Positions 20,481 through 39,664 of a DNA stretch of 64,000 nt are shown one piece after another. Under the pieces are notes generated by a model. It ran no database searches, was not told the DNA's origin, and saw nothing but the letters and a program-made list of their open reading frames with translations. The stretch lies in contig OZ246418.1 in assembly GCA_965231155.1 (NCBI GenBank), positions 637,710-701,709 of the forward strand, given 5' to 3'. Numbering within the stretch: the stretch's first letter is position 1; every line of letters starts with the position of its first letter. This DNA is from an uncultured Candidatus Saccharibacteria bacterium. GTDB taxonomy: Bacteria > Patescibacteriota > Minisyncoccia > UBA6257 > 2-01-FULL-56-20. A program made the translations under genes and the position numbers.

Positions 20481-21968
20481 ATGAAGAAAGGAATCTTAAT
20501 TGCATTCTTTTCTCTTAGTCTTGTTTCTTTCTTTGTTCAGGCAAGTCCTGTTCGTGCAGATAACAATGGTCCCTCGTTCATTGGTTTTATGCCTCCGTCA
20601 ACGGCAACAGCGACGGTTGCATATAGCTATGACGTTGAAGCAACCGATGGTGATGTTCCTGCTGATCCGTTAACTTTCAGTCTATTGTCCGCACCAGCTG
20701 GTATGATAATAGATGGTGGAACCGGATTAATTTCCTGGTTACCCTCAGAAGCGGATATCGCATCGAATCCTCATCTCGTTACCGTTCAGGTACAAGATAC
20801 GTTTCCGGCAGAACCGAACCATGTCGTTACGGAGAGTTTCCAGATTACTGTAGGAGCGGTGTCGACTTCGACTCCATCTTCAACAAATCTCGGACCTTCG
20901 TTCATTGGTTTTGTTCCTCCAGCCACTGCCACCGCGACGGTAGCCTATAGCTACACCGCAGTAGCAACTGATCCGGAAAGCGACCCTTTGACTTTCAGTT
21001 TAGTCACTGGGCCAGCCGGTCTTACCATTAATGCTTCCAGTGGTCTGATTAGTTGGACTCCCGATGCTACCCAGGTCTCAAGTACTCCGTATCTCGTTAC
21101 CGTTCAGGTACAGGATACGTATCCCTTGGAACCAAATCACGTAGTAGTGGAGAACTTCCAGATTACTGTGGGAGCTGCACCAACGACCACGACACCAACA
21201 TCGACTCCGCCAACAACCTGTACCGTAAACTGCGGTGGGGGAGGTGGAGGTAGTGTAGTTATTGTTCCTAGTGGATGTATTTCGAACTGTGGAGGAGGTG
21301 GGGGAGGAGGAACGCCAACTCCAACTAACCTTCCGCCATATTTCGTGAATTTCAACCCGGGAACAGTGGTGACGCTTGGTCAGGTGTATCTGTATGATGT
21401 CGATGGAAAGGATCCTGAGAACCAGCCGGTTACTTTCAGTCTTTTGGAAGGACCGAGTGGTTTGAATATTCTGCCGAACAACGGATTTATCTACTGGACC
21501 CCGGTTGACGGACAAGTTCGCGCTGAACCATATAAAGTAGTACTGCAGATTTCCGATGGATTTCTGACTGCCACTACCTCGTATGCAATTACTGTGGTTC
21601 GTCCGCCTGTAGTCATTATTGATACAGTGCCAGAACCGCCGGTAATTGTTCCGCCAGTAATCGAGCCACCAGTAACTCCGACAACTACAATCGTAACGGT
21701 TGTGGACACTCGGGGAACGCTGTTGGCCAGCATCATTGACTGGTTCCGCGATAACTACTGTCTCCTTGGATATCTCCTGTGGCTCCTGACTCTCCTTGCC
21801 TGGTTGGCTTATCTCCTCCTTGATCACGAGGATAAAGACGACGAGCGCGAAGAGATCGCCAAAGAGCTTCAGGTTGATTCCGAAGCTCCAGTGGTATCCG
21901 CAGAGTCGGATGTCATTCCGCTTTTCTCGCACGAGAGAGAAACAGACGAGAGTAAAGAAATCGTCTAA
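20481..21968 (+). CDS. Cell-surface protein with three cadherin-like 'putative Ig' (He_PIG/dystroglycan-type) repeats, Gly6-7 linkers flanked by Cys, a C-terminal TM anchor, and an acidic tail.
   Basis: It opens with a signal peptide. The repeated motif is PSFIGF[MV]PP…ATVAYSY…DPLTFSL…PAG[ML][TI]I…SGLISWTP. It also contains CGGGGGGS, the helix YLLWLLTLLAWLAYLLL, and a DE-rich C-terminus. Confidence 0.7.
   Translation: MKKGILIAFFSLSLVSFFVQASPVRADNNGPSFIGFMPPSTATATVAYSYDVEATDGDVPADPLTFSLLSAPAGMIIDGGTGLISWLPSEADIASNPHLVTVQVQDTFPAEPNHVVTESFQITVGAVSTSTPSSTNLGPSFIGFVPPATATATVAYSYTAVATDPESDPLTFSLVTGPAGLTINASSGLISWTPDATQVSSTPYLVTVQVQDTYPLEPNHVVVENFQITVGAAPTTTTPTSTPPTTCTVNCGGGGGGSVVIVPSGCISNCGGGGGGGTPTPTNLPPYFVNFNPGTVVTLGQVYLYDVDGKDPENQPVTFSLLEGPSGLNILPNNGFIYWTPVDGQVRAEPYKVVLQISDGFLTATTSYAITVVRPPVVIIDTVPEPPVIVPPVIEPPVTPTTTIVTVVDTRGTLLASIIDWFRDNYCLLGYLLWLLTLLAWLAYLLLDHEDKDDEREEIAKELQVDSEAPVVSAESDVIPLFSHERETDESKEIV
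20560..21190 (+). repeat. Two tandem, near-identical intragenic repeats of about 320 bp, encoding cadherin-like domains 1 and 2.
   Basis: High nucleotide identity is visible between 20567-20860 and 20890-21180. Confidence 0.6.
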
Positions 21969-22960: not shown

Positions 22961-25900
22961 ATGAATAATCAATCGAGCTTCCGTAGATTCTTAGGATACT
23001 TTCTTTTAGTGGCCGTTTTTTTCTCTAGTTTTGGGAGTAGTTTTCTGGGACTTCATCAGACGGCAATGGCTGCGACGTACAATTTTTCGCAGACTACTTT
23101 TTCTGGCGGGGCAACGACAACGAGTTTCCCAACTCATGCGAGTAATTCTGTGAACTCTTACTCAGGAACCTGGTGGAACCAGTATTACAGTAAAGATGCC
23201 TCAACAACTGCCAGTACAGTTATTACTCTCGCTTCATCTTCGAGATCGATCACTCAAACTGACAATGGATCAACAAATACCGGGTTTAATATGGCGACTT
23301 CGAGTAATTCCTCGACTGCAGTGACTGGCTCGGGAGACGACGCTTTGGTTGAGTTAGCTCTTTCTTCAGCTCGTTTTCAGGATATTTTAGTAGCCACCTC
23401 TTCTTTGCCATCTAACAACGGCCTCGGAGTGGCATTCCATCCTAATGGTAAGTATATCGCAGTTGGTGGCGTGGGTTCGCCCTATCTCCATATTTATAAT
23501 TTTGATCCAGATACCTATACAATTGGGAATAAAATTACTGACTCAGTGACTAGTTGCGGAAGTTCTATTGATTCCGTTAGTTTCCATCCCGAAGGTAGAC
23601 ACTTGATGGTTTCTTGTGGAGGTACCTCGGTGATGATTTATGATTTCACTCCCTCTGCCACTTATAATGCAACGAGTGGGATTATTAGCGGAGGGGTTTC
23701 TCGTGGTTCAGTAGCTGGTGCTATGAATGAGGCAAAGTTCAGTCCGAATGGAAAATTCGTAGCCATTGCTCATGGTGGTTCTCCTTACTTATCTGTATAT
23801 TCCTTTAGTACGTCAACTAAAAATTTTGTAACGCTCATTAATCCAACCGACCTTCCTGATGGAACTGGTCGAGGGATAGACTTTTCTACTGATGGAGCCT
23901 ACATTGGTCTTGCGCATAGTATTAATCCGTTCGTATCGATTTATACTTTCAACTCGTCGACTGGAGCTATTGGGAGTACTAAAAAAAGTCCTAGCAATGT
24001 GCCTGGAGGAGCGGGATCTTCGATTTCTTTTCATCCCAGTAGTTCTTATGTAGCTGTAGGTAGCGCAGTTTCTAATGAAATAACAATCTATAACTTTAAC
24101 GGAAACTTTGGTAATAAATTGACTACGTCGACTCTGTTTGATGGTAGCGTTGAAGATGTTCGTTTTAGCCCCGATGGAAGTTATATTGCATTTGCAGTTT
24201 CTGATGCCGACACACCTTTTCATTACGTGCTTGGGTTCAATGCTACTTCCACTTGGAATGCAACTGCTAATGTAATCGGAGGGAACGTTCAGGCCGGAGA
24301 TAATTTGCCAGACGATGGAAATGGAATAGCCTTCCATCCAAGTAGCACTTTCCTTGCAATGGCTCATCACGGCTCTCCTTATTTTTCAGTCTATGCTCGT
24401 GTGCCACGTTATCCGACCGTGAGTGGTATCTATACTTCGGGTCCGATTGATTTTGGGAGTAAACAGAATTTTACGACACTGCAGTATGCGTCGAGTGGCT
24501 TATCAGGAACTAGCATAACGATTGATGTTCGTGCAGGTAACGATGCTTCACCTCCAACATCGTGGACAAGTTCGACAGCTAATTGGTCAACAAGCACGGC
24601 ATCGTATGTGAGTAACATCACTTCGAGTAGTGTGAGTATTGCTGGTCTTAGTGGATATCAGTATCTTCGTTATCGTGCGACTCTTTCAAACGGTGGTACT
24701 GATACGAAAACACCATCTTTGGAGAGTGTCACAATAAATTCGTATGCATTTCCGACGTCTTCGACCTTACTTGGATCTCCTTTTAATGCTGGTGACTCAA
24801 CTAATGTCTTTTCTGCATTCAAGTGGACGGATAACGCTTCCACTGCTTCGGGTACAGATGTTTTATTCCAAGTGCGTACCGGTGCAAGTACGGGTACGCT
24901 TGGCACGTTTGTCGGGCCAGGGGATTCAGCTAGTACGTATTTTTCTTCCAGTACTTGCAGTAAGGCAAGTGGTTTGGTTTCTTGTACTATTCCCAGCACT
25001 TCAACGCTTCGTGATGGTAGTAGTGATCAATGGATGCAGTATAAAACTTTCTTAATTTCACAGGGTCATAACGCACCAACGATTACTGGAGTAACGAGTA
25101 CATATGTAGTTAATGCCTCACCGGATTTTTCGAGCGTGACGGCAGCTACTACTACAACGACATCAACGCCAACTTCAACAGTTTCTATCCAGTTCCAAGT
25201 TCGAGATACTGACACGACAACAAATTACGTCACCTCTTCATATGAATATAGCACCTCGAGTGGGGTTAGTTGGACGAGCATTACGAGTGCCAGTTTAAAC
25301 AGTACTTCGACAGTCTCCACGACAGTCGATATATCTTCTTATACGAGTCGTACGGTAACCTGGAGTCCATCCGCTCAGATTCCTGGAGTATATGCAACGA
25401 GTGTCCAGGTTCGAGTCACGGCCAATGATTTTGAGTTAGCCAATAACCTTGGTCGAGCGACGGGGACTTTGTCTGTGCTGGATACGAAGAATCCGACAAG
25501 CGTATCGCTCAGTTTTGACTCGCGGAACGGGACCGATACTTTAACCATAGGTGCGAGCGATGACAGTAATTTACAATTTCTCCTTTCTAATTCAAGCGAT
25601 TTTTCTGCTGATGGATTAAATAGTTCAAGTGGTGTGTGGTCTGTGGCTACCACTCCGTCACTTTCAACAACCACAACGTGGAACGCGACAGGGACGCCAT
25701 CATACGAGAGGGTCTATCTGCAGGTGCGCGATATTTATGGAAATACCGCAACGACGAGTGTGGTGGCACCTCATACGCCACAGAGTGTGGTACTTTCTGA
25801 TATTTCAAATGTCAGCACCGGAGTCTATAGCGAGTATCTGAGTTGGGCAACTTCCACGGATACTACGGGCGCGACAACTGCTTTTTATGAAATTTATCGA

Positions 25901-28900
25901 TCGACAAACAATACTTCAAGCTTTGCATTTTTAGCTTCGACAACGGCGACTACCTATATCAACTCTGGACTGAATACTTCAATTACGTATTACTATCGTA
26001 TTACCACGAAAACGACTCAGGGGAACTACTCGAACTATTCGGATATTGTTGGTGATCAACCGAATGGGCGAGCGACAAATATTGCGCCGGAGTTTAATAC
26101 TAGTCTTGATAGTACAAACCAAACTGGTGTGATTATTAGTCAGGTGACGAGCACCGCTTCTTCTGACTGGGGGAAGGTCCAGATTCAGTATAGTGTTCGT
26201 GATGCCGATACTCATCTCGGATCATCAACGCCTGGTTATATTACTCCATCCTTTGCTTATAACATTGGCTCGGGTTGGGTAAGTATTTCTGGAGCAGCTC
26301 TGAATTCGACTTCGACTAATACCAAGGCAGTCTCGAGTTCAAGTTATACCACCTATACCGCTATTTGGAGTGCTTCGACGAGTCTTCCGAGCCAGTACAC
26401 TACAAACCTCCAGGTTCGGGTAACTGCCGATGATGGTGAATCAGCCAACAATACGACTCCTGGGGTGAGTACACCGATTACGCTCGACACCACTGCACCA
26501 ACACTAAGCTCTAGTCTTTTAGTTAATGGATATACAGCAAATGCACCAGCTACTTCGACCAGTGTGACTCTTCGAATTCAAAGTATTACAGGTGCTCCAT
26601 CAGGAGAGACAATTTATCCGCAATTTTCTAACGATGGTTCGACGTGGTATGGAATGAGTGGGGGAGCGACAACTACTGGCTTAGGAACGGCAGTATCTTC
26701 TACTGCTGGGGCGCTTTCTAGTCTTTCTTGGTCGTGGGTGCTGAGCGGTACAAATACGGTTTATTTAAGAGTTATTGATGCTCTGAATAACTATTCGGCG
26801 ACTTCTTCAGTTGATGTGCAGGGAATAAACCAAGCTCCTCAGGTTCAGACGCTCACTGTCTCGCAGAGTACGACTACGATTGGTCTTGTGAATATTAGTT
26901 ATCAGGTTCAGGACAGTGATCAGGGGAGTGTGTCCTCTTCTTTCGCCTATAGCACCGACGGTGCTAGTTGGACGACTCTTTCGGGAATGAATGCTACCGC
27001 CACCGCGCTTTCCAGTCTTTCAACAAGTTCTTGGAATACGATATATGCAACATGGAACGCCTCGTCTCAGATTCCGAATGCCTATACCAGTGGTTTGCAA
27101 GTTAGAGTGACACTGAATGATGCTCAGGCCGTCAATAGTTCAACAGTGGCCACCACCAGCCTAAATCTCGATACCTTAGCACCGACTCGTAGTTTGACCC
27201 TTGATGCGCGAACAACGACCGGAACAGTTACTCTCTCGCTTTCGGATAATAATAATCTTGAATATTTACTTTCTAACTCGAGTACTCTCGTTGCTGATGG
27301 ACAGAACGCTTCGAGCGGAGTCTGGATTACAGTAGGGGATACTTCGCTCTCGACGAGTACTGCTTGGAATCTCGCAGCTACTTCTTCGCACGCTACTGTA
27401 TATCTCCAGGTGCGAGATCTTTATGGCAATGTGACTTCAACTTCAGCCATTGCCCCTGGTGTTGTTTCCGGAATGACTTTGCAGGACATTTCTGAGCGAG
27501 CGTCTGGATTGTTCAAGCATTTGATTACCTGGACGGCCTATGAAGCGACAACTTCTGCTTCATTGGCACATTACGAAGTTTATCGTTCGAGTAATAACTC
27601 CAGTAGTTTTGCGCGAGTGGCAACTACAACAAATAATTCATATACCGATCTCAGCATTGCTTCGACTACTGTTTATTATTACCGAGTGGTAGTTGTGACA
27701 ACGAATGGAAATTATTCTGACTATTCGAGTATCGTGAGTGGTCAGCCGACCGGTTCAGCGAATACTGCTCCTAATTTTAATACAAGCCTTGATAGTACGA
27801 ACCAAACGGGTGCCACGATTTTACACAGCGCCACTTCAAGTAGTCCCGACTGGGGAAGAGTTCAGATTCAGTATAGTGTTCGGGATACCGATACGAACTT
27901 AGGTTCATCGACTCCTGGATATATCACCCCATCTTTTGAGTACAATATTGGCTCGGGTTGGGTGAACATCGCGACGTCGACTCTCAATAGTACATCGACG
28001 GATAACAAGACGGTTACTACTTCTAGCTACAACACCTATACAGCGGTTTGGAGTGCTTCGACCAGTCTTCCTTCGACCTACACAACTAATTTGCGAGTAC
28101 GGGTAACCGCTGATGACAATGAATCTTCAAATAACACCGGACAGGCGGTGACTGCACCGATCACCTTGGACACCACCGCGCCAACACTAGCTTCGACATC
28201 CTTATTGATTAACAATTCTAGTGATAATGCCGAAGCGACTTCGACTGCGGTAACTCTGAAACTTCAGAGTATCACTGGTACGCCATCGGGGGAGTCTGTT
28301 TATATTCAGTTTTCTAACGATGGTTCAACCTGGTATGCCGGGAATGCGGATGGAACGGTGACTTCAACTGCCGGTACTTTAGGGAGTTTAGTTTCCTCAA
28401 CTGCTGCATCATTGTCTGCAGTTTCTTGGCCTTGGGTCTTTAGTGGGAGTACTGTCTATGTTCGTGTGTTTGATGTCTTGGGAAATGGTCCAGGAACCGA
28501 CTCGAATACTGTGTATGGATATAATACCGCGCCAGAAATTCAGAATATGACGGCCTTGCAGATTGCCACCACGACTGATAGTAGTTGGGGTTCGTTGAGG
28601 ATTGATTTCGAAACAAGAGATACTGATTCTTCGAATAATTTAGTGAGTTCGACGTTTGCCTTTTCGACTTCAAGTGGAGTGACTTGGACGAGTATTCCAA
28701 CCTCAACGTTGAATGCTACAGCGACAGCCTCGTTTGCAGTTTCAACTTCGTCATACACTGCCTACAGTGTGGTATGGAATGTTTCCTCGACGCTTGTTGA
28801 TACTTATTCTACGGATTTGCGAATTCGAGTGACCGTGAATGATCGAGCAACTGTCAATAATATAACGAGTTCAACTGCTACCGTTACTCTTGATACTCGG

Positions 28901-31900
28901 TCGCCAAGTTTAGCTTCTGATTCTTTATTGGTGAACGATTCCGCCTCCAGTGGTCAGAGCACTTCTTCGGTGGTGACATTAAAGCTCCAGAATGTTACTG
29001 GTTTGCCGACAGGGGAGACGATCTACGCTCAGTTCTCTGATGACAACTCAACCTGGTATGGTGCGAACTCTTCAGGAACACTCGCTTCAAGTTCAGAGCT
29101 GGGAAGTGGTTTTAGTTCGGCGACAAGTACTTTGAGCGGTTTATCTTGGAGTTGGAACTTGGGGAGCGGGAGTTCGAGTAGATCGAAAGTGCTTCGAGTA
29201 AGAATTTATGATGCCTATGGAAATTCGGGAGGTTCGGATACTAACTCTGTCGGATATAACACTTCGCCAGATTTCAATCCTCTCTATGGTACGAATGGTT
29301 TGAGCGTAAGTCAGGTTTCTTCTTCGGCTGATTCAACTTGGGGGAAGGTGATAATTCAGTACAATGTTCGTGATACAGATACCAGTGTTGGCTCTTCAAC
29401 TCCTGGATATATCACACCATCTTTTGAGTATAGTATTGGCGCCGGGTGGTCTGCTATTCAGACTTCTACATTAGGAGAATCTGACATTAGTAATAAGGGA
29501 GTGAACGATTCATCCTATACGACTCACTCTGCTACTTGGCATGCCTCCTCGCAGATTTCCGGAACATATACGACCGCCTTACAGATTCGAGTTACGGCGA
29601 ATGATAATGAATCAGTTTCTAACACTGCCACAGCTACCTCTGGACTAGTTGTTCTCGACACGAAAGTTCCTTCAACGACAGTTCAGATTGACAGTAGGAC
29701 AGATAGTCTATCCATTACTGCTTCTGATGACTCGACTATTAGCTACAATCTCTCTAATGCCTCTTCTTTGATTGCGGATGGTTCTAATGCCTCTTCGGGG
29801 AGTTGGACTGAAACCAATGCAACCTCAACCAATACTTCAAGTAGTTGGACCTTGGTCGCTGGAGCGACATCAGTAGAGACTGTGTATTATGCCGTGCGTG
29901 ATCTTTTTGGAAATATTACGACTGGTTCGGCCAGTGCGCCTGCGGCGCCTGCTTCGACGACAGTGAGCGACATCTCGACTGCGAGTAGTTCGAACTTCAA
30001 GGAGCTGATAAGCTGGACCGCGTATACGGCAACTTCTGGTCCAACCTTTGCCAGTTACGAAGTCTTCAGAGCAACCAGTGCCGATCCTTCGACCTTTTCG
30101 TTACTTGCATCTGTTTCTGATTCTGCTCAGAACTACTACACAGATACTGGCTTAGCATCTTCAACAACCTATTACTATAAGGTAGCCATCAAAACTTCAA
30201 ATGGTGACTATTCTGGTTATGGAGAAACTGTTTCCGATCAGCCAGATGGTTTGTCTGGGGCGGCCGCCGAGGGACCAACTATTTCGGATGTGTCAGCAGC
30301 TGAGGTGCAAGCGTCATGGGCACGCTTTACTTGGACAACTGACCGAGTTTCTGATTCCAAGGTTGAGTATTCAGTTGCTACTTCTGGTACGCCATACAGC
30401 CTTTCGACCACTTCTCTTACTTTGGTGACTAGTCACGATATTACGGTGAATGATTTACTCCCGAATACGACCTATTCCTTCCGAGTAACCTCTAAGGATA
30501 TTAATAATAAACAGTCAACGACAGTTGGATCTGACTTCACGACAAGTGGCGGTCCAATTATCTCAGCGGTTACCACTGAAGCAGTGACTGATCATACCGC
30601 TTCGATTATTTGGAACACCAACAAAGATTCTGATTCCATTGTGGTATATGCAACGAGTACTCAGAATCTACGGAATGCCACTGGTACCTCAGAAGCTGGT
30701 AGCACTAGCTTAGTGGGTTCTCCATTCCAGCATCGTGTGACACTTTCCGGACTTAATACTCAGACGATTTATTACTACTATGTAAAATCAACTGACGCTT
30801 CAGCCAACGTTTCAACCGAAAAGAATAGTGGTAATTTCTACACCTTTAGTACTGCTCAAGATACAAAAGCGCCGGTTATCTCCAATATCTTAGTTGCTGC
30901 AAAAACACAAACGGCTGCGGTGATCACTTGGCAAACTGACGAACCAGCAAATACCCAAATTAGCTATGATACACGTTCGGCTTCTTCGACTGGTCTTGCT
31001 CATCGAAATCTAACTACCCTCGATGACACAATGACTGTCAGTCATGCTGGCGTCATTTCTGATTTGGTTGCCGGTAGGACGTATTATTACAGCGTGAAGT
31101 CAACTGATGCAGCAGGTAATATAACCACTGCCGATGAAGTAAGTTTTGAAACTGCGAATAGCGAAACACCGATTATTAATTACGTGAGTGTTGGTGGTGG
31201 AGCGTCTGCCCCTGCTGATCCAAAAGATAAGACTGCGCCTGGCATCTCGGATATAGAAATAACAGACATTACACCATTTTCTGCCAAGCTTACCTTTAAG
31301 ACCAACGAAGAGGCCATTGGCTTCGCTGCCTTTGGTGAAACTGATGAATATGGACGAGTTCTTGGTGAGCCTAAATTTAGAACTGACCATATGATTCCAT
31401 TGACTAATTTAAAGTTGGGAACGACCTATCACTTAGAGGTGAAGGCCAGCGACAAGGCAGGTAATTTTGGAACAGCGCCAGATCAAACATTCACTACTAA
31501 ATTCGCGGTGGAGAGTGCAGGTGACATCGCCAAGCTAGAAAATGTGGAACAGTATCAGAGTGAGATTGATCAGTTAATTGAGTCAATCACACCTTCTCTC
31601 ATCACTCCTTTTGTGGGCAAGGTTGATATTTCTGATGTTACTGAAGACTCGGCAGTTATTAAATGGGTAACGAATACGAAGACGTATGGCTCGGTGCTCT
31701 ATGTGGCGGATAAAGATTACGACGAGACAAAAGAAAATCCATATCTTGCTGAGGTAAGCGATACTCAGCCGAGGACGACTACTCATCAGGTGAAATTAAG
31801 TAATCTAGCTTTTGGACAACTTTATCGATTCAAAGTTAAGGCATACACCTTGCCTAACGTGACCGGTTTTAGTTCCGAGAGAACATTCACGACAAAGTCT

Positions 31901-32557
31901 TCGAAGATTCGTCCTGATGTAGTTAAGCTCTTAAATACAAGCTTCGTAGTAAGTTGGCAGACGCAGAAGAAGACTACTTCCTTTGTTGAATATCAGAACG
32001 TACGTACTGGTCAGATTAAACAGAGCGGAAATGATGCCTCAGTAACCGCTCACGTTGTTCAGGTTGAAAACCTTGAGCCAAATGCAACCTATCGAGTGAG
32101 AGCTTTTGGGTATGACGAAAAAAATAATATTGTGGAAAGTGAAACTATTACTGTGACGACGAAGCGAGATATCACTCCACCAGTTATTTCTGGACTGAAG
32201 ATCGATAATACGTTCGTGCCGGGTAGAAATGATCGCATTCAAACAGTTATCAGCTGGAAGACTGATGAGCCATCTACTTCTATGATTTTATATGGTGAAG
32301 GAGCAACTGCTGGGAAGAGAGGATTGTCAGACACTGCTAGCTCTACTGATGGTTCCCTGAATACTTCGCATAATGTGATTATCACCAACTTTAAGCCAGG
32401 CACAATTTATCAGATGCAGGTGGTGTCTGTTGATAGCGCTGGCAATAAGGCAACTTCACCACCTCGAGTGATTATTACACCAAAGCAGAATCAGTCGGTT
32501 TTTGATGTCATTGTGAAAAACTTTGAAGGCACGTTTAAATTCGTTAATCCGCAGTAG
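22961..32557 (+). CDS. Giant extracellular protein of 3198 aa. It has an N-terminal signal/TM, a 7-bladed beta-propeller (lactonase/YVTN-like), about six tandem modules of roughly 330-550 aa containing FN3-like domains, and about eight C-terminal FN3/PAP-N-like domains.
   Basis: Blade motif F[HS]P[ND]GKY[IV]A…GSPY[LF]S[VI]Y[NS]F x7. Repeated blocks include DWGKVQIQYSVRD…GYITPSF[AE]YNIGSGW…, LDTTAPTL, and YE[IV]YRS…YYYR. C-terminal repeats are T…V.W.T[DN]…S.V.Y and TYY[YF].V.S.D. No C-terminal anchor is present. Confidence 0.75.
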   Translation: MNNQSSFRRFLGYFLLVAVFFSSFGSSFLGLHQTAMAATYNFSQTTFSGGATTTSFPTHASNSVNSYSGTWWNQYYSKDASTTASTVITLASSSRSITQTDNGSTNTGFNMATSSNSSTAVTGSGDDALVELALSSARFQDILVATSSLPSNNGLGVAFHPNGKYIAVGGVGSPYLHIYNFDPDTYTIGNKITDSVTSCGSSIDSVSFHPEGRHLMVSCGGTSVMIYDFTPSATYNATSGIISGGVSRGSVAGAMNEAKFSPNGKFVAIAHGGSPYLSVYSFSTSTKNFVTLINPTDLPDGTGRGIDFSTDGAYIGLAHSINPFVSIYTFNSSTGAIGSTKKSPSNVPGGAGSSISFHPSSSYVAVGSAVSNEITIYNFNGNFGNKLTTSTLFDGSVEDVRFSPDGSYIAFAVSDADTPFHYVLGFNATSTWNATANVIGGNVQAGDNLPDDGNGIAFHPSSTFLAMAHHGSPYFSVYARVPRYPTVSGIYTSGPIDFGSKQNFTTLQYASSGLSGTSITIDVRAGNDASPPTSWTSSTANWSTSTASYVSNITSSSVSIAGLSGYQYLRYRATLSNGGTDTKTPSLESVTINSYAFPTSSTLLGSPFNAGDSTNVFSAFKWTDNASTASGTDVLFQVRTGASTGTLGTFVGPGDSASTYFSSSTCSKASGLVSCTIPSTSTLRDGSSDQWMQYKTFLISQGHNAPTITGVTSTYVVNASPDFSSVTAATTTTTSTPTSTVSIQFQVRDTDTTTNYVTSSYEYSTSSGVSWTSITSASLNSTSTVSTTVDISSYTSRTVTWSPSAQIPGVYATSVQVRVTANDFELANNLGRATGTLSVLDTKNPTSVSLSFDSRNGTDTLTIGASDDSNLQFLLSNSSDFSADGLNSSSGVWSVATTPSLSTTTTWNATGTPSYERVYLQVRDIYGNTATTSVVAPHTPQSVVLSDISNVSTGVYSEYLSWATSTDTTGATTAFYEIYRSTNNTSSFAFLASTTATTYINSGLNTSITYYYRITTKTTQGNYSNYSDIVGDQPNGRATNIAPEFNTSLDSTNQTGVIISQVTSTASSDWGKVQIQYSVRDADTHLGSSTPGYITPSFAYNIGSGWVSISGAALNSTSTNTKAVSSSSYTTYTAIWSASTSLPSQYTTNLQVRVTADDGESANNTTPGVSTPITLDTTAPTLSSSLLVNGYTANAPATSTSVTLRIQSITGAPSGETIYPQFSNDGSTWYGMSGGATTTGLGTAVSSTAGALSSLSWSWVLSGTNTVYLRVIDALNNYSATSSVDVQGINQAPQVQTLTVSQSTTTIGLVNISYQVQDSDQGSVSSSFAYSTDGASWTTLSGMNATATALSSLSTSSWNTIYATWNASSQIPNAYTSGLQVRVTLNDAQAVNSSTVATTSLNLDTLAPTRSLTLDARTTTGTVTLSLSDNNNLEYLLSNSSTLVADGQNASSGVWITVGDTSLSTSTAWNLAATSSHATVYLQVRDLYGNVTSTSAIAPGVVSGMTLQDISERASGLFKHLITWTAYEATTSASLAHYEVYRSSNNSSSFARVATTTNNSYTDLSIASTTVYYYRVVVVTTNGNYSDYSSIVSGQPTGSANTAPNFNTSLDSTNQTGATILHSATSSSPDWGRVQIQYSVRDTDTNLGSSTPGYITPSFEYNIGSGWVNIATSTLNSTSTDNKTVTTSSYNTYTAVWSASTSLPSTYTTNLRVRVTADDNESSNNTGQAVTAPITLDTTAPTLASTSLLINNSSDNAEATSTAVTLKLQSITGTPSGESVYIQFSNDGSTWYAGNADGTVTSTAGTLGSLVSSTAASLSAVSWPWVFSGSTVYVRVFDVLGNGPGTDSNTVYGYNTAPEIQNMTALQIATTTDSSWGSLRIDFETRDTDSSNNLVSSTFAFSTSSGVTWTSIPTSTLNATATASFAVSTSSYTAYSVVWNVSSTLVDTYSTDLRIRVTVNDRATVNNITSSTATVTLDTRSPSLASDSLLVNDSASSGQSTSSVVTLKLQNVTGLPTGETIYAQFSDDNSTWYGANSSGTLASSSELGSGFSSATSTLSGLSWSWNLGSGSSSRSKVLRVRIYDAYGNSGGSDTNSVGYNTSPDFNPLYGTNGLSVSQVSSSADSTWGKVIIQYNVRDTDTSVGSSTPGYITPSFEYSIGAGWSAIQTSTLGESDISNKGVNDSSYTTHSATWHASSQISGTYTTALQIRVTANDNESVSNTATATSGLVVLDTKVPSTTVQIDSRTDSLSITASDDSTISYNLSNASSLIADGSNASSGSWTETNATSTNTSSSWTLVAGATSVETVYYAVRDLFGNITTGSASAPAAPASTTVSDISTASSSNFKELISWTAYTATSGPTFASYEVFRATSADPSTFSLLASVSDSAQNYYTDTGLASSTTYYYKVAIKTSNGDYSGYGETVSDQPDGLSGAAAEGPTISDVSAAEVQASWARFTWTTDRVSDSKVEYSVATSGTPYSLSTTSLTLVTSHDITVNDLLPNTTYSFRVTSKDINNKQSTTVGSDFTTSGGPIISAVTTEAVTDHTASIIWNTNKDSDSIVVYATSTQNLRNATGTSEAGSTSLVGSPFQHRVTLSGLNTQTIYYYYVKSTDASANVSTEKNSGNFYTFSTAQDTKAPVISNILVAAKTQTAAVITWQTDEPANTQISYDTRSASSTGLAHRNLTTLDDTMTVSHAGVISDLVAGRTYYYSVKSTDAAGNITTADEVSFETANSETPIINYVSVGGGASAPADPKDKTAPGISDIEITDITPFSAKLTFKTNEEAIGFAAFGETDEYGRVLGEPKFRTDHMIPLTNLKLGTTYHLEVKASDKAGNFGTAPDQTFTTKFAVESAGDIAKLENVEQYQSEIDQLIESITPSLITPFVGKVDISDVTEDSAVIKWVTNTKTYGSVLYVADKDYDETKENPYLAEVSDTQPRTTTHQVKLSNLAFGQLYRFKVKAYTLPNVTGFSSERTFTTKSSKIRPDVVKLLNTSFVVSWQTQKKTTSFVEYQNVRTGQIKQSGNDASVTAHVVQVENLEPNATYRVRAFGYDEKNNIVESETITVTTKRDITPPVISGLKIDNTFVPGRNDRIQTVISWKTDEPSTSMILYGEGATAGKRGLSDTASSTDGSLNTSHNVIITNFKPGTIYQMQVVSVDSAGNKATSPPRVIITPKQNQSVFDVIVKNFEGTFKFVNPQ
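25090..29700 (+). repeat. Intragenic tandem repeat modules, about 1.5-1.7 kb apart and about 80% identical at the nucleotide level, inside the 3198-aa gene.
   Basis: Near-identical segments start at about 26166, 27849, and 29338 (…cagattcagtatagtgttcg[tg]gat…ggatatat[ct]ac[tc]ccatc[ct]tttg…). Confidence 0.6.
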
Positions 32558-32571
32558 GGAATGAATGTCTT

Positions 32572-33606
32572 ATGACGCTGATTGAACTTAAGGACGTTAA
32601 CGTCTATTACGATAAAGGAAAACCAAACGAGTTCTGGGCTTTAAGGAATGTTAGTCTTCAGATCGAGAATGGAACGTATGCGGCTTTCTTCGGTGCGTCC
32701 GGCTCTGGAAAGACGACGATGCTCTATACCATCTCTGGAATGGAGAAGCCGGAGAGTGGAGAAGTTTTAGTGAGCGGAAGAGATATCACTAAATTTTCCC
32801 AGAAGGAGTTAGCTATCTATAGGCAGATGACTGTGGGTATTGTCTTCCAACAGTTCAATCTTATTCCTTCGATTACAGTGCTCGATAATATTGCGTTGCC
32901 AATGGCATTCCTGGGAATGCCATTTGAAATGCGCCAAGCAAAAGCTCTCGATCTCCTTAAGCGTTTCGGCATCGATAATCTAGCCAAACGTTTACCATTC
33001 GAACTCTCCGGAGGACAGCAGCAGCGTGTCGGTATTGCGCGTTCCTTAGCCAACGATCCACCGATTGTTATAGCTGACGAACCGCTTGGAAACCTTGATT
33101 CAGAAAATGCCAATAAGGTTTTGGATTTTTTGTATGATTTACAGAAAAAAGATGGCCGGACCATTATTATGGTTACGCACGAATCCTGGAGTTTAAAAGA
33201 TGCAGAGCTTATTTTTCACATTAAGGACGGTACACTCGTGAAAACTGAACGTCGTGAGGGACGAAGTCAGCCTTTCGTGCCACCAAAATCCGCCAATCTT
33301 CCAGAAGAGGTTCTTGATAAAACTTTTAAAAATATCTTCGAAAATATTGAGAAGACTAATAAGCAGAGACACGAACACAAAGAAGATAGTAAGCATAAAA
33401 TCCTTGCCCTCCTTCAGGAGTCGGGTAGGATTACCAATAATCAGGTGGAGAGTACTCTCGGGGTATCTGATGCAACTGCGACCAGATATCTCGAGGAGTT
33501 GTGCCATGAAGATAAGTTGATTAAAGAGGGGACTATGGGAAGGAGTGTAGCTTATACACTCAAGCCCATTCCCCAAGCAACGGCTACCGTGAGCAGTGCG
33601 GTCTAG
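32572..33606 (+). CDS. ABC transporter ATP-binding protein of the MacB/LolD family, fused to a C-terminal winged-helix DNA-binding-like domain.
   Basis: Walker A is GASGSGKTT, the ABC signature is LSGGQQQRV, and Walker B is IVIADEP. Then comes an 80-100 aa extension, HKILALLQESGRITNNQVESTLGVSDATATRYLEELCHEDKLIKEG, with the HTH pattern. Confidence 0.8.
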   Translation: MTLIELKDVNVYYDKGKPNEFWALRNVSLQIENGTYAAFFGASGSGKTTMLYTISGMEKPESGEVLVSGRDITKFSQKELAIYRQMTVGIVFQQFNLIPSITVLDNIALPMAFLGMPFEMRQAKALDLLKRFGIDNLAKRLPFELSGGQQQRVGIARSLANDPPIVIADEPLGNLDSENANKVLDFLYDLQKKDGRTIIMVTHESWSLKDAELIFHIKDGTLVKTERREGRSQPFVPPKSANLPEEVLDKTFKNIFENIEKTNKQRHEHKEDSKHKILALLQESGRITNNQVESTLGVSDATATRYLEELCHEDKLIKEGTMGRSVAYTLKPIPQATATVSSAV

Positions 33607-33660
33607 TATATTCTCGTCAGGGAGGATGGCTTAGTGTAAAATGAGTAGGTATAGATTTCT

Positions 33661-34902
33661 ATGGCAAACGACTATGGTGATTTAAATGTCACCCACCGAC
33701 TTGGATATCTTGATCTTCTTAAACTCTCAATGAGGGTTTTTCGGACTAAGTTGATGCGCACGCTCCTTACCATTTTTGGTATGTCGGTTGGTATCGGCAC
33801 AGTCCTTTTTCTGGTTTCGCTTGGTTATGGCTTGCAGTACATTTTGATTGGTCGATTGGTTACCTCGGAGGACTCTCTCATTACTCTTGAAGCGTTGTAT
33901 CCACCTGAGGTAGCAAGAAGCCTCACTCCAGCTGATTTAGAAGATATTCGGAAGATACCAGAAGTGGCCGAGATGAGTCCAGTTGCGGAATTCCCCGGTG
34001 AAATACGATCTGGCGATTTGCCAGGTTTTGCTCTTGTCCAGATTGTGGGGAGTAATTATTTTCGTCTTGCTGGTGTAAAACCTGATATTGGATCGGCGTT
34101 TAACGATGCTGAACCAGGCTTGGTCCTCTCGAACTCAGCGATGCAGTTGTTCGATGTAAGTTCAACCCCGTCCTCTTTGGGTAAACAGTTCGCTTTAAAG
34201 ATTGCCTATCAGTCAGATAATGGAGAGGAGTTGGCATCGCCAATTGAAGTTTCGCTCTCTAGCACTGTTCCCCTGGTCGGTGTTTTGACTGAAGACTCTC
34301 AGACACCAACGGTGCTTATTTCTAATAAATTTGTCCCTCAAGCACCACCATTTTTCAGGAAGGTGCTTTTGAAGGCGACTAATATCGATACCGTGGAAAT
34401 TCTTCGTGATAAATTAATCAACAAAGGATTCTTTATTTCAGCGAAGATTGATCTGGTAAACCAAGCTAGGGGAGTTTTGAGAGCAATTACCATTACACTT
34501 GGGGTATTTGGTATTACTGCTCTTTTCGTAGCCGCTATTGGAATGTTTAACACTATGATTGTTGGTTTCTTGGAGAGGATTTACGAGGTGGGTATTATGA
34601 AGTCATTAGGTGCCACCGATCGAGATATTCGGAATCTTTTCTTGATGGAATCTTCGATGCTTGGTTTCTTGGGAGGCGTTGGTGGCATCGCTTTAGGCTT
34701 TAGTTTGGGTCAGATTGGAAATCTGATAGTTAGTACGCTTTCAAGGAGGTTAGGTGGGGAATCAATTCAGCTTTTCATCACGCCCCTTTGGTTTATGGGT
34801 ATGATTATTGCTTTTTCTATTCTCATTGGATTTATGGCTGGTTTTTGGCCAGCGCGCAAGGCTGCCACTCTGTCGCCGAAGGAAGCTTTCGTAAGAAAGT
34901 AA
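33661..34902 (+). CDS. ABC transporter permease of the FtsX/MacB type, with a large extracytoplasmic domain.
   Basis: It has an N-terminal TM helix and a periplasmic domain of about 230 aa. The three C-terminal TM helices carry the MacB-like motif …MKSLGATDRDIRNLF. Confidence 0.75.
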   Translation: MANDYGDLNVTHRLGYLDLLKLSMRVFRTKLMRTLLTIFGMSVGIGTVLFLVSLGYGLQYILIGRLVTSEDSLITLEALYPPEVARSLTPADLEDIRKIPEVAEMSPVAEFPGEIRSGDLPGFALVQIVGSNYFRLAGVKPDIGSAFNDAEPGLVLSNSAMQLFDVSSTPSSLGKQFALKIAYQSDNGEELASPIEVSLSSTVPLVGVLTEDSQTPTVLISNKFVPQAPPFFRKVLLKATNIDTVEILRDKLINKGFFISAKIDLVNQARGVLRAITITLGVFGITALFVAAIGMFNTMIVGFLERIYEVGIMKSLGATDRDIRNLFLMESSMLGFLGGVGGIALGFSLGQIGNLIVSTLSRRLGGESIQLFITPLWFMGMIIAFSILIGFMAGFWPARKAATLSPKEAFVRK

Positions 34903-34962
34903 GAGTTTTTTCTCTTAGTTGTTTGATTTTCTGCATTGTGTAACTATGAGTAGTGTAATCCT

Positions 34963-36132
34963 ATGAGAATCTTTATTAGTCGATTTCTTACTGTACTTTT
35001 TGTCCTGCTGGTACTTTCACCACTTTCTACCGAGGCGGCCGCTTTTAAGTATGCAGGGTGGCTGCCATTTTGGGAGAAGCAAAAAGGGGCTTTCGATCTG
35101 GCAGTGAATATCGATAGGCTTGATGAGGTCAGTCCATTTTCTTATGAGGTGCGTCCAAATGGTACCCTGGTTGATAAATTGAAGCTGAAAGAAGGTTTCT
35201 GGCCAATTTGGTTGCAATCAATGAGAGAGTTAGGAGTAAAGAATATTCCTACTGTTGCGTGGTTTGATGGTGAGGGGATACACAAACTACTGAGCAACAC
35301 CAAGAGTCGACGTGCTCACGAAGACGCGATTGCAAAGCTAGTAAAGGATATGAAGTTTGATGGTATTGATATTGACTACGAGGCTAAAAAAGCAGAAACC
35401 ATTGATTACTTCTCTCTATTTATAAAAGGACTAGCCATTCGTCTCCATCCGATGGGGAAGACTCTCTCTTGTACGATTGAGATTCGTATGCCAGTCAGTT
35501 CTCGGTACGGAGTAGTTCCTGGTGAGCCAATTGAATACGCGAATGATTACAAGGTTCTTAATAAGTACTGCGATCAAGTTCGGTTGATGGCTTATGACCA
35601 GGGTGGCGTCGATAAGTTGTTGAATACCGAGAAGGGCAATGGCCGTCTTTATGCACCGGTGGCTGATCCCGCTTGGGTGGAGAAGATTCTCCAGGAGGTT
35701 TTAAAGACAATTAGCCCAAAGAAGGTGATGCTCGGAATTCCGACCTATGGCTATGAGTATCAGGCGACTTGGGCAGATGGCATCACGACCTACCGTCGGT
35801 TGAGAAGTATTAATTTCTCTACGGCTATGACTTTGATGAACTCCTTAGGACTGACTCCTGAAAGAAATAGTGCTGGCGAGCTTGGTTTCTGGTATACCTC
35901 AAGTAGCCTCATCGAAGTCTCATCCTCTTTGAGGCGAGATGTTTCTTCTTCTTTACCCCCAGAAATTGCTTCTTCGACAGCCCGAGGAGGAATCACTCGT
36001 TTTGTTTCTTTGTCAGATGCCGAAGCCGTGGCTCAGAAAATTGCGTTAGCTAAAAAATACAAGTTGAGAGGCGTTGTTTTTTTCAAGTTTGACGGCGGAT
36101 TTGATCCCAATATTTGGACTAAAATTCAGTAG
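34963..36132 (+). CDS. Secreted glycoside hydrolase family 18 (chitinase-like) protein.
   Basis: A signal peptide and the GH18 catalytic motif FDGIDIDYE (DxxDxDxE). Confidence 0.7.
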   Translation: MRIFISRFLTVLFVLLVLSPLSTEAAAFKYAGWLPFWEKQKGAFDLAVNIDRLDEVSPFSYEVRPNGTLVDKLKLKEGFWPIWLQSMRELGVKNIPTVAWFDGEGIHKLLSNTKSRRAHEDAIAKLVKDMKFDGIDIDYEAKKAETIDYFSLFIKGLAIRLHPMGKTLSCTIEIRMPVSSRYGVVPGEPIEYANDYKVLNKYCDQVRLMAYDQGGVDKLLNTEKGNGRLYAPVADPAWVEKILQEVLKTISPKKVMLGIPTYGYEYQATWADGITTYRRLRSINFSTAMTLMNSLGLTPERNSAGELGFWYTSSSLIEVSSSLRRDVSSSLPPEIASSTARGGITRFVSLSDAEAVAQKIALAKKYKLRGVVFFKFDGGFDPNIWTKIQ

Positions 36133-36764: not shown

Positions 36765-37487
36765 ATGAGCAAAACACGTGATCCAATTATCCATACTGAG
36801 TTTGATGATGGAATTAGTGGCGGTAAATTAAACTGGCTTCGGGCAGCTGTTCTTGGTGCGAACGATGGTATTGTTTCTGTTTCCTCAGTGATTGTTGGTG
36901 TGGCCGGTGCGTCTAGCTCAACGAGCTTCATTCTGACGGCTGGCGTGGCGGCGCTGGTGGCTGGAGCGCTTTCGATGGCGGTCGGGGAGTATGTTTCAGT
37001 GAGTACTCAGCGTGATACAGAGAAAGCTCTTTTGGCGAAGGAGCGTTTTGAACTAGAGCATCTTCCTAACGAAGAACTAGAGGAGCTTACGACTATCTAC
37101 GAGGGTAAGGGTTTGTCTCGAGCGACAGCAGAGGTGGTGGCCAAGGAACTAACGGCTCACGATGCATTTTCTGCTCATGTTGATGCCGAGCTTGGTATAG
37201 ATCCCAATGACCTCACGAATCCTTGGCATGCTGCCTATGCCTCTGGTTTGGCGTTTTTCTGTGGTGCAGTGATTCCTCTTCTTGCGGTTATTATTTCTCC
37301 TGAAGACATTCTTGTCCCGGCAGTTTTCGGATCGGTGATTCTGGCCTTAGTCGCCACTGGTGGACTGAGTGCCTATGCGGGCGGTTCAAAGAAAAGAGTG
37401 GCTATCGTGCGTGTCGTCTTGGGTGGTGTCCTGGCGATGATTATCACCTTCGGTATCGGAAAGATTTTTGGCGTCTCAGGAATATAG
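36765..37487 (+). CDS. VIT1/CCC1-family iron/manganese transporter.
   Basis: The signature LRAAVLGANDGIVS…GEYVSV and five TM helices. Confidence 0.7.
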   Translation: MSKTRDPIIHTEFDDGISGGKLNWLRAAVLGANDGIVSVSSVIVGVAGASSSTSFILTAGVAALVAGALSMAVGEYVSVSTQRDTEKALLAKERFELEHLPNEELEELTTIYEGKGLSRATAEVVAKELTAHDAFSAHVDAELGIDPNDLTNPWHAAYASGLAFFCGAVIPLLAVIISPEDILVPAVFGSVILALVATGGLSAYAGGSKKRVAIVRVVLGGVLAMIITFGIGKIFGVSGI

Positions 37488-37495
37488 AATTTTTG

Positions 37496-37566
37496 CTGGG
37501 GGACAGGGAATCGAACCCCGATTCACGGCTTCAAAGGCCGCTGTCCTACCGTTAGACGATCCCCCA
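37496..37566 (-). tRNA. tRNA-Gln with anticodon UUG. CCA is not encoded.
   Basis: The minus strand reads TGGGGGATCGTCTAACGGTAGGACAGCGGCCTTTGAAGCCGTGAATCGGGGTTCGATTCCCTGTCCCCCAG. The 7-bp acceptor stem is UGGGGGA/UCCCCCA, the anticodon loop is CUUUGAA, and the T-loop is TTCGATT. Confidence 0.85.
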
Positions 37567-37804
37567 ATTTCATTTTCTCACTTAATAGCTTCTTTCCTTT
37601 TGGTGTTTTGTAGAATCTTTCTGTCCGAAAGGCTTCATATCTATCATCGAACATCTCACGATAGACAAGTTTAATTGGTAAGCGACCTTTCGTAGAACGT
37701 ACCCTTCCTTGACTATGGCTTCTTAGTCTTTCTTCAAGATTCGACGTACAACCAATATAGAGTTTACCATCTTTTTCTCCCTGGAGAACGTAGACAGAAT
37801 ACAT
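37523..37804 (-). CDS. Small GIY-YIG nuclease-family protein, YhbQ/UPF0213-like. The last 14 or so codons of the ORF read through the 5' half of tRNA-Gln, so the true 3' end is uncertain.
   Basis: MYSVYVLQGEKDGKLYIGCTSNLEERLRSHSQG…YKT matches the GIY-YIG core. The ORF continues through the tRNA sequence as LGDRLTVGQRPLKP* before reaching TGA. Confidence 0.6.
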   Translation of the reverse strand: MYSVYVLQGEKDGKLYIGCTSNLEERLRSHSQGRVRSTKGRLPIKLVYREMFDDRYEAFRTERFYKTPKGKKLLSEKMKLGDRLTVGQRPLKP

Positions 37805-37868
37805 AAAATTATTGTACCTACCGTTAGCCTCGCCCATAGGCTGGAGCCTTTAAGGGCTACGGCCGAGG

Positions 37869-37881
37869 GACGATCCCCCAA
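37869..37881. repeat. A 13-bp direct repeat, GACGATCCCCCAA, that duplicates the 5' end of tRNA-Gln. The other copy is at 37555-37567.
   Basis: An exact 13-nt match. An additional 11-nt match, CCTACCGTTAG (the D-loop segment), occurs at 37545-37555 and 37817-37827. Confidence 0.6.
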
Positions 37882-37957
37882 GTATGCGTACTACTCTATC
37901 ATAATTGTCATTTATCCGGCAATTACGTAAGGCTCTTTTTGTGCTATACTCTGGACT

Positions 37958-38449
37958 ATGAATTTTGCTAAAAAACTCTCTCAAATATTACCAATAGTAA
38001 CAGCTGAGGCCCACTGTGATGTGCCGTGTGGAGTCTATGAACCAACAACGGCAAAGATTGCCGCGAAAACCGTTGAAAAGATGGTTCTCCAGCTTCATGA
38101 GTTGAAGATGCCAGCTGACATGGCTGATGATCATTCGAGATTGGAGTATGCGAATGCCGTTTCTCGAAGGATTGCCACCAAGGAGAAGCATCTACAGATT
38201 TGCAAGGATGAACTCTCTTTGCTTTGGTCGGATTATTTCAAGCCAGAACATCTTGAGAAGTATCCAGAATTGCATACGATGTTCTGGAACGCCTTGAAAC
38301 TTTGTTCGAAGAACAAGCAAGCGGTGGATGGTGATCTGGCGAGAAAATTGACTGTGGCCGTTGATGAGATTGCGAAGATTTTTTATGAGACCAAAGGTGA
38401 TCCGAGTCGTTATGAAGCCTACCAGCAGATTACTGACAAACTTTTTTAA
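37958..38449 (+). CDS. sodN: Nickel-containing superoxide dismutase precursor.
   Basis: An N-terminal pro-peptide is followed by the Ni-hook motif HCDVPCGVYEP (His-Cys-x-x-Pro-Cys-Gly-x-Tyr) and then a four-helix bundle, about 14 kDa after cleavage. Confidence 0.8.
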   Translation: MNFAKKLSQILPIVTAEAHCDVPCGVYEPTTAKIAAKTVEKMVLQLHELKMPADMADDHSRLEYANAVSRRIATKEKHLQICKDELSLLWSDYFKPEHLEKYPELHTMFWNALKLCSKNKQAVDGDLARKLTVAVDEIAKIFYETKGDPSRYEAYQQITDKLF

Positions 38450-38726: not shown

Positions 38727-38812
38727 AATAGATCTTGCGTTTTATCTAATATTGTTGTTTAATATTTTTAGCAGTCTTGGCGGATAGTCGAGACAAAAGA
38801 GAGGAGCTCGTC

Positions 38813-39562: not shown

Positions 39563-39564
39563 TT

Positions 39565-39600
39565 GATTTCTATCTCTTGCCCACCGTGCATTGCGCACAG
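39565..39600 (+). terminator. Rho-independent terminator.
   Basis: CCCACCGTGCA-TTGCG-CACAGTGGG is followed by TTTTTTATTT. Confidence 0.65.
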
Positions 39601-39664
39601 TGGGTTTTTTATTTCAAAATTAAGTTTTTCACAGGTAAATATCTGAATCTATGTGTTAAAATAA

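Follow-up and report, generated by a model that had tools for sequence, protein, structure and literature searches.

ATP-binding cassette (ABC) systems of type VII pass ATP-driven motion on to extracytoplasmic partners and carry no substrate through the membrane, as described for FtsEX-EnvC (PMC7668044), MacB (PMC5985334), and YbbAP-TesA (PMC12646458). We examined a gene neighborhood with an ABC pair of this kind in a 64,000-nucleotide stretch of DNA (hereafter the window; positions 637,710 to 701,709 of contig OZ246418.1, GenBank assembly GCA_965231155.1) from an uncultured Candidatus Saccharibacteria bacterium (GTDB lineage Patescibacteriota; Minisyncoccia; UBA6257). In the open reading frame (ORF) list of the window, four plus-strand ORFs follow one another: a giant secreted protein with a stalk of fibronectin type III (FN3) domains, an ABC ATPase, an ABC permease, and a secreted glycoside hydrolase of family 18 (GH18), with spacers of 14, 54, and 60 nt, respectively. 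An earlier note on this DNA had reported these ORFs, their same-strand order, and the first two spacers, all of which were found as described, and had suggested that the four genes form one coupled system. Bacteria of the candidate phyla radiation (CPR, or Patescibacteria) are believed to spend their lives in attachment to other microbes, and to our knowledge the molecules that make or control host contact in the Parcubacteria branch are largely unknown. Here, we suggest that the giant protein and the ATPase-permease pair form one conserved module of Paceibacteria, in which a type VII mechanotransmitter docks and actuates a surface fiber, a reading to which we give about as much weight for as against. 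The pairing is probably a previously undescribed device that holds or controls such a fiber.

Among described systems, Bacillus subtilis YtrEF (PDB 9o9x) is the closest solved homologue of both ABC subunits, and shares a permease with four transmembrane (TM) helices, a large ectodomain, and a monoderm-type envelope. However, structural alignment gave an identity of only ~19%, the ytrGABCDEF operon includes a GntR repressor and a second ABC system, and there is no giant FN3 protein, receiver, or ATPase C-terminal domain on the YtrEF side. FtsEX, with its partners EnvC, PcsB, CwlO, or RipC, resembles our proposal in that the ATPase cycle is relayed via an ectodomain to a partner whose own helices make the contact (PMC7668044, PMC6355983), whereas here the ectodomain is of the MacB_PCD type and the would-be partner is a giant FN3 fiber instead of a coiled-coil hydrolase activator. 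MacAB-TolC and LolCDE have the same fold and gave the top Foldseek matches, but the surroundings of the pair studied here include no conserved gene for a MacA/HlyD adaptor, TolC, or a LolA-like protein. BceAB-BceRS is likewise a type VII ABC system wired to two-component signaling; BceB, however, has 10 TM helices (with the ectodomain between TM7 and TM8) and a histidine kinase, in contrast to 4 TM helices, a stand-alone receiver, and no conserved kinase here. LapA and SiiE are also giant repeat adhesins encoded beside an ABC system (PMC6272769), but they rely on an HlyB-type exporter, a membrane-fusion protein, and TolC, and these substrates have a C-terminal secretion signal and no N-terminal one, whereas the giant protein has a Sec signal and its ABC pair is of the MacB type. 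Finally, YbbAP-TesA offers a precedent for a type VII ABC system in complex with a secreted hydrolase (PMC12646458), although linkage to the GH18 gene is not conserved here. In a full-text literature search, no account was found of CPR bacteria in which a type VII ABC system is linked to a giant FN3 protein and a CheY-like receiver.

To investigate the conservation of this neighborhood, we fetched 80 genome loci around permease homologues that are 38–80% identical to the window's permease and were drawn from at least 583 species matches. ORFs were called anew in these loci and compared with the window proteins; a clear permease was present in 75 of the 80, and 34 loci had full flanks (at least 8 kb on both sides of the permease). 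A giant homologue was detected no more than 10 kb from the ABC pair in 46 of the 75 permease-anchored loci, and in 27 of the 34 with full flanks. It lies upstream on the same strand in 29 of these 46 loci, downstream on the same strand in 9, and in divergent orientation in 8. The giant thus adjoins the pair despite changes of side and strand, indicating that these genes stay together through rearrangements. All-against-all clustering of the neighboring ORFs showed that just four gene families are conserved around the permease: the permease itself (76 loci), the ATPase (75), the giant (50), and a CheY-like receiver (50), the next family being found in 9 loci.

The reverse scan was based on 80 metagenome loci anchored on the C-terminus of the giant, using a 12-sequence alignment as query because a 30-sequence version was too diverse. 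Of the 59 informative loci (at least 3 kb downstream), 41 contained the ABC pair, a count that includes two loci (L100 and L102) with a different ABC ATPase only. Independent gene calls and precomputed Pfam annotation of an NCBI genome gave the same components in the order giant of 2551 amino acids (aa), Response_reg protein of 143, ABC_tran protein of 431, and MacB_PCD/FtsX protein of 402. Conservation of the neighborhood in relatives, without which the earlier note would have counted its reading as refuted, was therefore observed in both directions for the giant and the ABC pair, and not for the GH18 gene (see below).

All relatives of the permease belong to Patescibacteria of the Parcubacteria/Paceibacteria branch, and the identical permease protein was found only on metagenome contigs of runs SRR14271365, SRR14271373, and SRR14271353. 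Two loci labeled "Nanoarchaeota archaeon" (L036) and "Burkholderiales bacterium" (L049) also carry a Paceibacteria-type ATPase-permease pair whose permease is 50–51% identical, and L049 additionally contains a giant and an ORF at the position of the receiver; both are probably mis-binned contigs.

Several observations weigh against a functional unit of the giant and the ABC pair. The pair is far more widespread than the loci studied, as indicated by the species matches mentioned above. Within the available flanks, 29 of the 75 ABC loci lacked a giant (among loci with full flanks, 7 of 34). Conversely, no ABC pair was present in 18 of the 59 giant-anchored loci. The linkage is not universal, implying that the parts can be encoded apart and that the ABC pair may serve different or further functions. 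In mirror-tree analysis, the distance matrices of all parts were strongly correlated (r = 0.79–0.90), which fits plain vertical co-inheritance; the partial correlation of the giant C-terminus was weak with the permease (0.27–0.31) and 0.06 with the nucleotide-binding domain (NBD). The C-terminal tail and the linker helix of the giant, described below, were modeled at a pLDDT (predicted local distance difference test) of only ~50 in the monomer. In addition, YtrEF of B. subtilis has no established function (PMC12772383).

The wide distribution of the pair, the loci in which either partner stands alone, and the correlated distances across all parts are what one would expect if the ABC pair were a self-contained housekeeping or resistance transporter (of the YtrEF, MacB, or antimicrobial-peptide type) and the giant an uncoupled, vertically inherited neighbor; some source annotations indeed name the permease an antimicrobial-peptide transport permease. 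On the other hand, the giant is kept in 50 of the 80 loci whereas no neighbor outside the four families exceeds 9, it remains beside the pair through changes of side and strand, the receiver travels with it in two rearranged loci (L031 and L090), and the neighborhood contains no conserved MacA/HlyD-type adaptor or other partner for export. We consider such an uncoupled transporter unlikely. The genetic link between the giant and the ABC pair is real but not obligatory.

The giant itself has the anatomy given in the earlier note (a 7-bladed propeller, about six tandem modules, and about eight FN3 domains), as windowed self-comparison showed. Plain self-BLAST of the protein returned no repeats, and the repeats were mapped using windowed self-BLAST. 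Seven blade repeats were located at aa ~140–490, a region with only weak WD40-type Pfam matches. They are followed by six tandem modules beginning at aa ~718, 1040, 1290, 1602, 1846, and 2090, whose units of ~245 or ~320 aa are Ser/Thr/Asn-rich and 30–70% identical to one another. About eight domains of the FN3/Pur_ac_phosph_N type occupy aa 2441–3173 (Pur_ac_phosph_N 2.8e-24 and fn3 1.5e-19 on the C-terminal array). An AlphaFold2 (AF2) model of the last 441 residues (pLDDT 82.9) contains five beta-sandwich domains, and Foldseek matched it to generic tandem FN3 arrays only.

Homologues of the giant, 1346–3463 aa in length, were detected in many Paceibacteria (a separate homologue search with the giant C-terminus returned only 21 short fragments). 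Their heads differ, with a Lactonase-type propeller, an LVIVD propeller, or none detectable, and the sequence between the conserved ends is not conserved among relatives. Adhesins are usually built in this way, the part near the cell being conserved and the distal head variable. Conservation among the giants covers the stalk and a ~20-residue tail up to the very end of the protein, with the consensus ESIvDVIFKNFEeTFxFlxN (QSVFDVIVKNFEGTFKFVNPQ in the window) and the core motif DVIxKNFExTFxF. When all ORFs of 50 aa or more from 83 loci were scanned with a regular expression for this tail, 45 matched, each time 15–20 residues from the C-terminus of a giant homologue; the window gave one match. 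The tail is predicted, at low confidence, to be helical and amphipathic, its helical hydrophobic moment exceeding that calculated for a beta strand. A second conserved helix, with the motif ENxEQFQ...LPSLxPPF, interrupts the stalk. The mature N-terminus is also conserved across the family (ATYxFxQxxWxGG...H..NQxGWxxY). In a minimal member of 471 aa (P0135), the signal peptide is followed by just a few FN3 domains along with the linker helix and the tail. Since this protein holds little beyond signal peptide, stalk, and tail, the conserved C-terminal ~450 aa may represent a functional core to which heads are added.

Hydropathy and inspection of the sequence of the giant revealed one hydrophobic segment only (aa 10–32), followed by a signal-peptidase-type site between AMA and ATY. 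No second TM segment, LPxTG-like motif, or C-terminal hydrophobic segment was found over the full 3198 aa, and a lipobox cysteine is absent. A sortase-anchored (LPXTG) protein is expected to have the motif, a C-terminal TM segment, and a basic tail, and the giant does not fit this type. The earlier statement that the giant has no membrane anchor is thus correct, whereas the accompanying statement that it has no other sorting signal needs revision because of its family-specific C-terminal tail and conserved mature N-terminus. Just upstream, the window encodes a 1133-aa SpaA-type (prealbumin-fold) protein (15360–18761) and a 495-aa He_PIG Ig-domain protein (20481–21968), each of which starts with a signal and has a TM segment at its C-terminus; they are probably conventionally anchored surface or pilin-like proteins. 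The giant lacks such a segment, suggesting that it is retained in a different way. The gene at 54034–55353 encodes a C-terminal processing peptidase of the S41 family that includes a PDZ domain, and the same gene lies near the module in another locus (L164). Peptidases of this type recognize C-terminal tails, and processing of the conserved tail of the giant could in principle be a role of this enzyme.

The permease matched both the FtsX-type domain (PF02687, 63.9 bits versus a cutoff of 25.5) and MacB_PCD (PF12704, 52.1 versus 27), and its AF2 model (pLDDT 78.3) has four long TM helices. In profile searches, it aligned over the full length with B. subtilis YtrF (9e-39), followed by MacB, Spr0695, and LolF/E/C, whereas FtsX reached just 1e-4. 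Foldseek searches with the model gave the same picture, with MacB, LolE, Spr0695, and YtrF at 1e-17 to 2e-19 (MacB 5gko at 2e-19; highest TM-score, 0.67, for 5nik) versus 2e-7 for FtsX, and the isolated ectodomains of MacB, LolE, and YknZ were also matched. Many ectodomain positions are invariant among 20 diverse homologues. The pair therefore has all the hallmarks of the type VII (MacB-superfamily) ABC group: a 4-TM domain, a MacB-fold ectodomain, and a cognate LolD/MacB-type NBD. These results bear out the previous description of a MacB/LolD-type ATPase with a permease that has a large extracytoplasmic domain. The label "FtsX-type" holds for the permease domain recognized by Pfam and not for the ectodomain, whose fold, judged from profiles and models, is that of MacB, LolE, and YtrF. 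The label "exporter" is not established.

Assignment of the pair to a described system was also considered. As FtsEX it was rejected, with scores of 187.5 for FtsE (cutoff 264.85) and 33.6 for FtsX (cutoff 255); a Wolfebacteria locus (L016) has a separate, genuine FtsE (273.7 versus 264.85) and an FtsX-like gene 8 kb from the pair. The MacB equivalog score was far below its cutoff as well. Such low equivalog scores, together with the separate FtsEX of a relative, imply that the pair belongs to a YtrEF-like branch of its own within the type VII ABC superfamily. LolCDE was rejected (LolD 192.3 versus 307.75, lolCE 44.4 versus 362.45; the giant has no lipobox cysteine). A domain search of the flanking genes in the window revealed no MacA/HlyD adaptor, nor is a fifth family conserved in the 80 loci; a MacAB-TolC tripartite pump was rejected for want of an adjacent membrane-fusion adaptor or outer-membrane duct. 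A BceAB-type sensing transporter does not fit a 413-aa permease with 4 rather than 10 TM helices and no kinase conserved nearby in the 80 loci, and a type I secretion adhesin (LapA/SiiE) does not fit a giant with an N-terminal signal and a MacB-type ABC system with separate subunits. In four Wolfebacteria loci (L011, L016, L021, and L053), ORFs of 230 and 302 aa (about positions 350–2500) were observed ~8 kb upstream of the receiver-ABC pair, and no giant gene was detected within 10 kb; in L016, these two ORFs are the FtsE and FtsX-like genes mentioned above.

The permease model matches LolE and LolC equally to MacB, and the mature N-terminus right after the hydrophobic segment of the giant is strongly conserved. 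Both points would suit an ABC pair that serves to produce the giant and not to hold it, either by LolCDE-like extraction and hand-over of a signal-anchored N-terminus or by release or passage of the chain through the wall. However, the signal-peptidase site of the giant is a canonical A-x-A, a lipobox cysteine is missing, the LolD and LolCE scores are far under their cutoffs, nothing points to a LolA-like acceptor (no LolA search was made), and the conserved unique tail is at the opposite end of the protein. A biogenesis function thus appears quite unlikely to us.

The ATPase has intact motifs (Walker A GASGSGKT, signature LSGGQQQR, Walker B with its Glu, IADEP, and H-loop TH), and its closest solved homologue is B. 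subtilis YtrE (profile 3e-51). Its C-terminus contains a winged helix (aa 266–323; HTH_24 27.3 bits versus a cutoff of 21.9, DUF977 29.1 versus 22.1) whose profile matches the MarR-family regulator AdcR (2.5e-4), DNA binding being only putative. The ATPases of relatives are longer (~430–480 aa) because of a ~200-aa C-terminal domain (CTD) composed of two similar halves, each ending in GGxGL. This CTD has no match in Pfam or among PDB sequences. It is also rare, with 136 cluster representatives among 1.84 billion at E ≤ 0.001, mostly at the C-terminus of 420–450-aa proteins; a homologue search with the CTD alignment returned 7 proteins. A by-eye likeness of its GGxGL turns to helix-hairpin-helix or helix-turn-helix elements found no supporting test and was dropped. 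That the winged helix is a divergent copy of the CTD was also rejected, as hhalign detected no profile similarity (probability 0.2%), and the winged helix is therefore treated as a replacement of the CTD.

The ~145-aa neighbor in relatives is a stand-alone CheY-like receiver (PF00072) with a family-specific insertion. It is present in 44 of the 75 permease-anchored loci, and keeps the phospho-acceptor Asp in 45 of 54 sequences and the Lys in 52 of 54; Ser/Thr is also kept. No receiver was found in the window (tblastn E > 0.8), nor in the other six loci of the winged-helix clade (L004 and L084–L088), so that every one of the seven members has both an exchanged CTD and a lost receiver. In L031 (11218–12066) and L090 (4832–5254), in which the giant is downstream of the permease, the receiver lies between them and adjoins the giant; a gene of the PD-(D/E)XK nuclease family is also inserted between permease and giant in L031. 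These cytoplasmic regulatory parts, i.e., the winged helix in the window and the receiver plus a novel CTD in relatives, had been overlooked in the earlier note.

What is known of type VII systems, the gene linkage, the anchor-less fiber, and its unique C-terminal helix led us to propose the following route of docking, actuation, and regulation. The giant would be exported by Sec, probably cleaved between AMA and ATY, and would form a long fiber consisting of a variable head (here the 7-bladed propeller and six modules), a conserved FN3 stalk, and a short amphipathic end helix. The ABC pair would act as a type VII mechanotransmitter of the MacB/YtrEF fold and not as a through-membrane exporter. 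Its permease ectodomain may bind the conserved C-terminal end of the fiber via the tail, and possibly the linker helix, thereby retaining the giant, and ATP binding and hydrolysis in the cytoplasm may shift the position or conformation of the fiber. In most relatives, the receiver probably acts on the ~200-aa CTD of the ATPase as a cytoplasmic input; in the window's lineage, which lacks the receiver, the MarR-like winged helix takes the place of the CTD.

A bolder version of this proposal is that a CheY-gated, ATP-driven type VII motor switches a giant adhesin fiber between attachment and release, extends and retracts it, or makes it step, and that the window's lineage has rewired this control through a DNA-binding winged helix. 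Such a motor seems rather improbable at present. If it existed, flagellum-less, host-dependent CPR bacteria would gain controllable host attachment or surface movement. As to the docking and actuating module itself, its wide conservation would make it a concrete, testable candidate for the host interface, combining a type VII ABC system, a receiver in most lineages, and a fiber whose head evolves fast. The partners of type VII systems so far comprise hydrolase activators, lipoprotein chaperones, efflux ducts, and kinases; a structural surface fiber would be added to these, and the YtrEF-like branch is given a context.

The last of the four genes encodes a secreted GH18 enzyme directly downstream of the permease, just as previously described, with a signal peptide, a PF00704 match (81.4 bits versus a cutoff of 29.6), and the sequence FDGIDIDYE at aa 132–140 (DGIDIDYE at aa 133–140). 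The TIM barrel and the DxxDxDxE catalytic motif that define the family are both recognizable. Its solved relatives include YdhD, chitinases, and SleL. The window also encodes MurC, a 440-aa M23 peptidase, a class I Glu/Gln-type tRNA synthetase (tRNA-synt_1c), and MurG on the minus strand (57035–63358). The presence of MurC, MurG, and the M23 peptidase indicates that the organism makes peptidoglycan, which bears on a possible YdhD/SleL-like substrate of the GH18 enzyme.

The coupled system suggested earlier would have three parts, with the ABC pair also activating or positioning the GH18 enzyme to remodel the wall or host surface around the fiber. In its favor, a gap of only 60 nt in which no terminator-like site was seen separates the permease gene from the GH18 gene downstream on the same strand, hydrolases are frequent partners of type VII ABC systems (PMC7668044, PMC12646458), and the closest solved relatives of the enzyme include the peptidoglycan-active YdhD and SleL. 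Against this, GH18 was found in none of the 80 genome loci and none of the 80 metagenome loci, even in relatives 73–80% identical in the permease or the giant C-terminus; three members of the winged-helix clade (L004, L085, and L088) have other genes after the permease; and no coiled-coil or other known FtsX-binding element was detected in the GH18 sequence. Its absence from all 160 related loci implies that GH18 is at best a strain-level addition. We consider a three-part system very unlikely; GH18 is a lineage-specific neighbor acquired in the window's lineage and lies outside the module of giant and ABC pair. Consensus scans for promoters and terminators were uninformative: 12 promoter-like sites were counted where 23.9 were expected, and none of the three inter-ORF gaps showed a terminator-like site. 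Coordinates of all features are listed in table 1.

Table 1. Features of the giant-ABC-GH18 region, in window coordinates.
Feature	Coordinates	Strand	Basis
Giant secreted FN3-stalk protein, 3198 aa	22961..32557	+	ORF, Pfam, homologues
Giant: signal peptide aa 1-37, h-region aa 10-32, AMA/A cleavage-type site	22961..23071	+	Sequence reading, hydropathy; cleavage predicted
Giant: conserved mature N-terminal motif ATY(N/T)F(S/T)Q..(W/F).GG...H..N...W..Y	23072..23245	+	Occurs once in window
Giant: seven-bladed beta-propeller head, lineage-variable part	23378..24430	+	Repeats, weak Pfam, homologues
Giant: post-propeller region, aa 491-717	24431..25111	+	Many homologues start aligning at ~aa 480
Giant: six long tandem modules, aa 718-2440	25112..30280	+	Self-comparison
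Giant: conserved FN3/Pur_ac_phosph_N-type stalk, about 8 domains	30281..32479	+	Pfam, model, Foldseek
Giant: conserved linker helix within stalk, ENVEQYQSEIDQLIESITPSL	31535..31600	+	Predicted helix, low confidence
Giant: family-specific C-terminal tail ..QSVFDVIVKNFEGTFKFVNPQ, candidate docking element	32480..32554	+	Predicted amphipathic helix, 3-4 hydrophobic spacing
ABC ATPase, 344 aa; NBD (LolD/MacB/YtrE type) 32572-33267	32572..33606	+	Pfam, motifs, profiles
MarR-like winged helix-turn-helix fused to ATPase	33367..33540	+	Pfam, profile match
Type VII ABC (MacB/YtrF-like) permease, 413 aa, 4 TM helices	33661..34902	+	Pfam, profile, AF2, Foldseek
Permease extracytoplasmic MacB_PCD domain, TM1-TM2, aa ~60-268	33838..34464	+	Pfam, AF2, Foldseek
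Secreted GH18, 389 aa; catalytic DGIDIDYE 35359-35382	34963..36132	+	Pfam, motif

Elsewhere, the window carries housekeeping genes (pyruvate kinase, TGT, QueA, and trigger factor, in addition to MurC, MurG, and the Glu/Gln-type tRNA synthetase) and encodes several further secreted proteins. From 38777 to 52341, the genes form a run on one strand, and most of their products are unannotated. It includes a 1717-aa Kelch-like-repeat protein (41438–46591) and an FN3/Big-domain protein (48657–49871), and a hydrophobic segment was present at the N-terminus of all three proteins of this run that were tested (261, 587, and 1717 aa). The run looks like a lineage insertion, because in L164 the ABC module is only ~6 kb from the fmt-def-S41-rplI block. 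The first 15,000 nucleotides of the window (1–15000) show a strong positive GC skew on the plus strand (0.15–0.33), which falls to about 0 after ~20 kb with genes still mostly on the plus strand. Just downstream of the GH18 gene (36765–38449), a VIT1 iron/manganese transporter, a tRNA-Gln gene (37495–37566, minus strand), and a nickel superoxide dismutase are encoded in this small-genome CPR bacterium.

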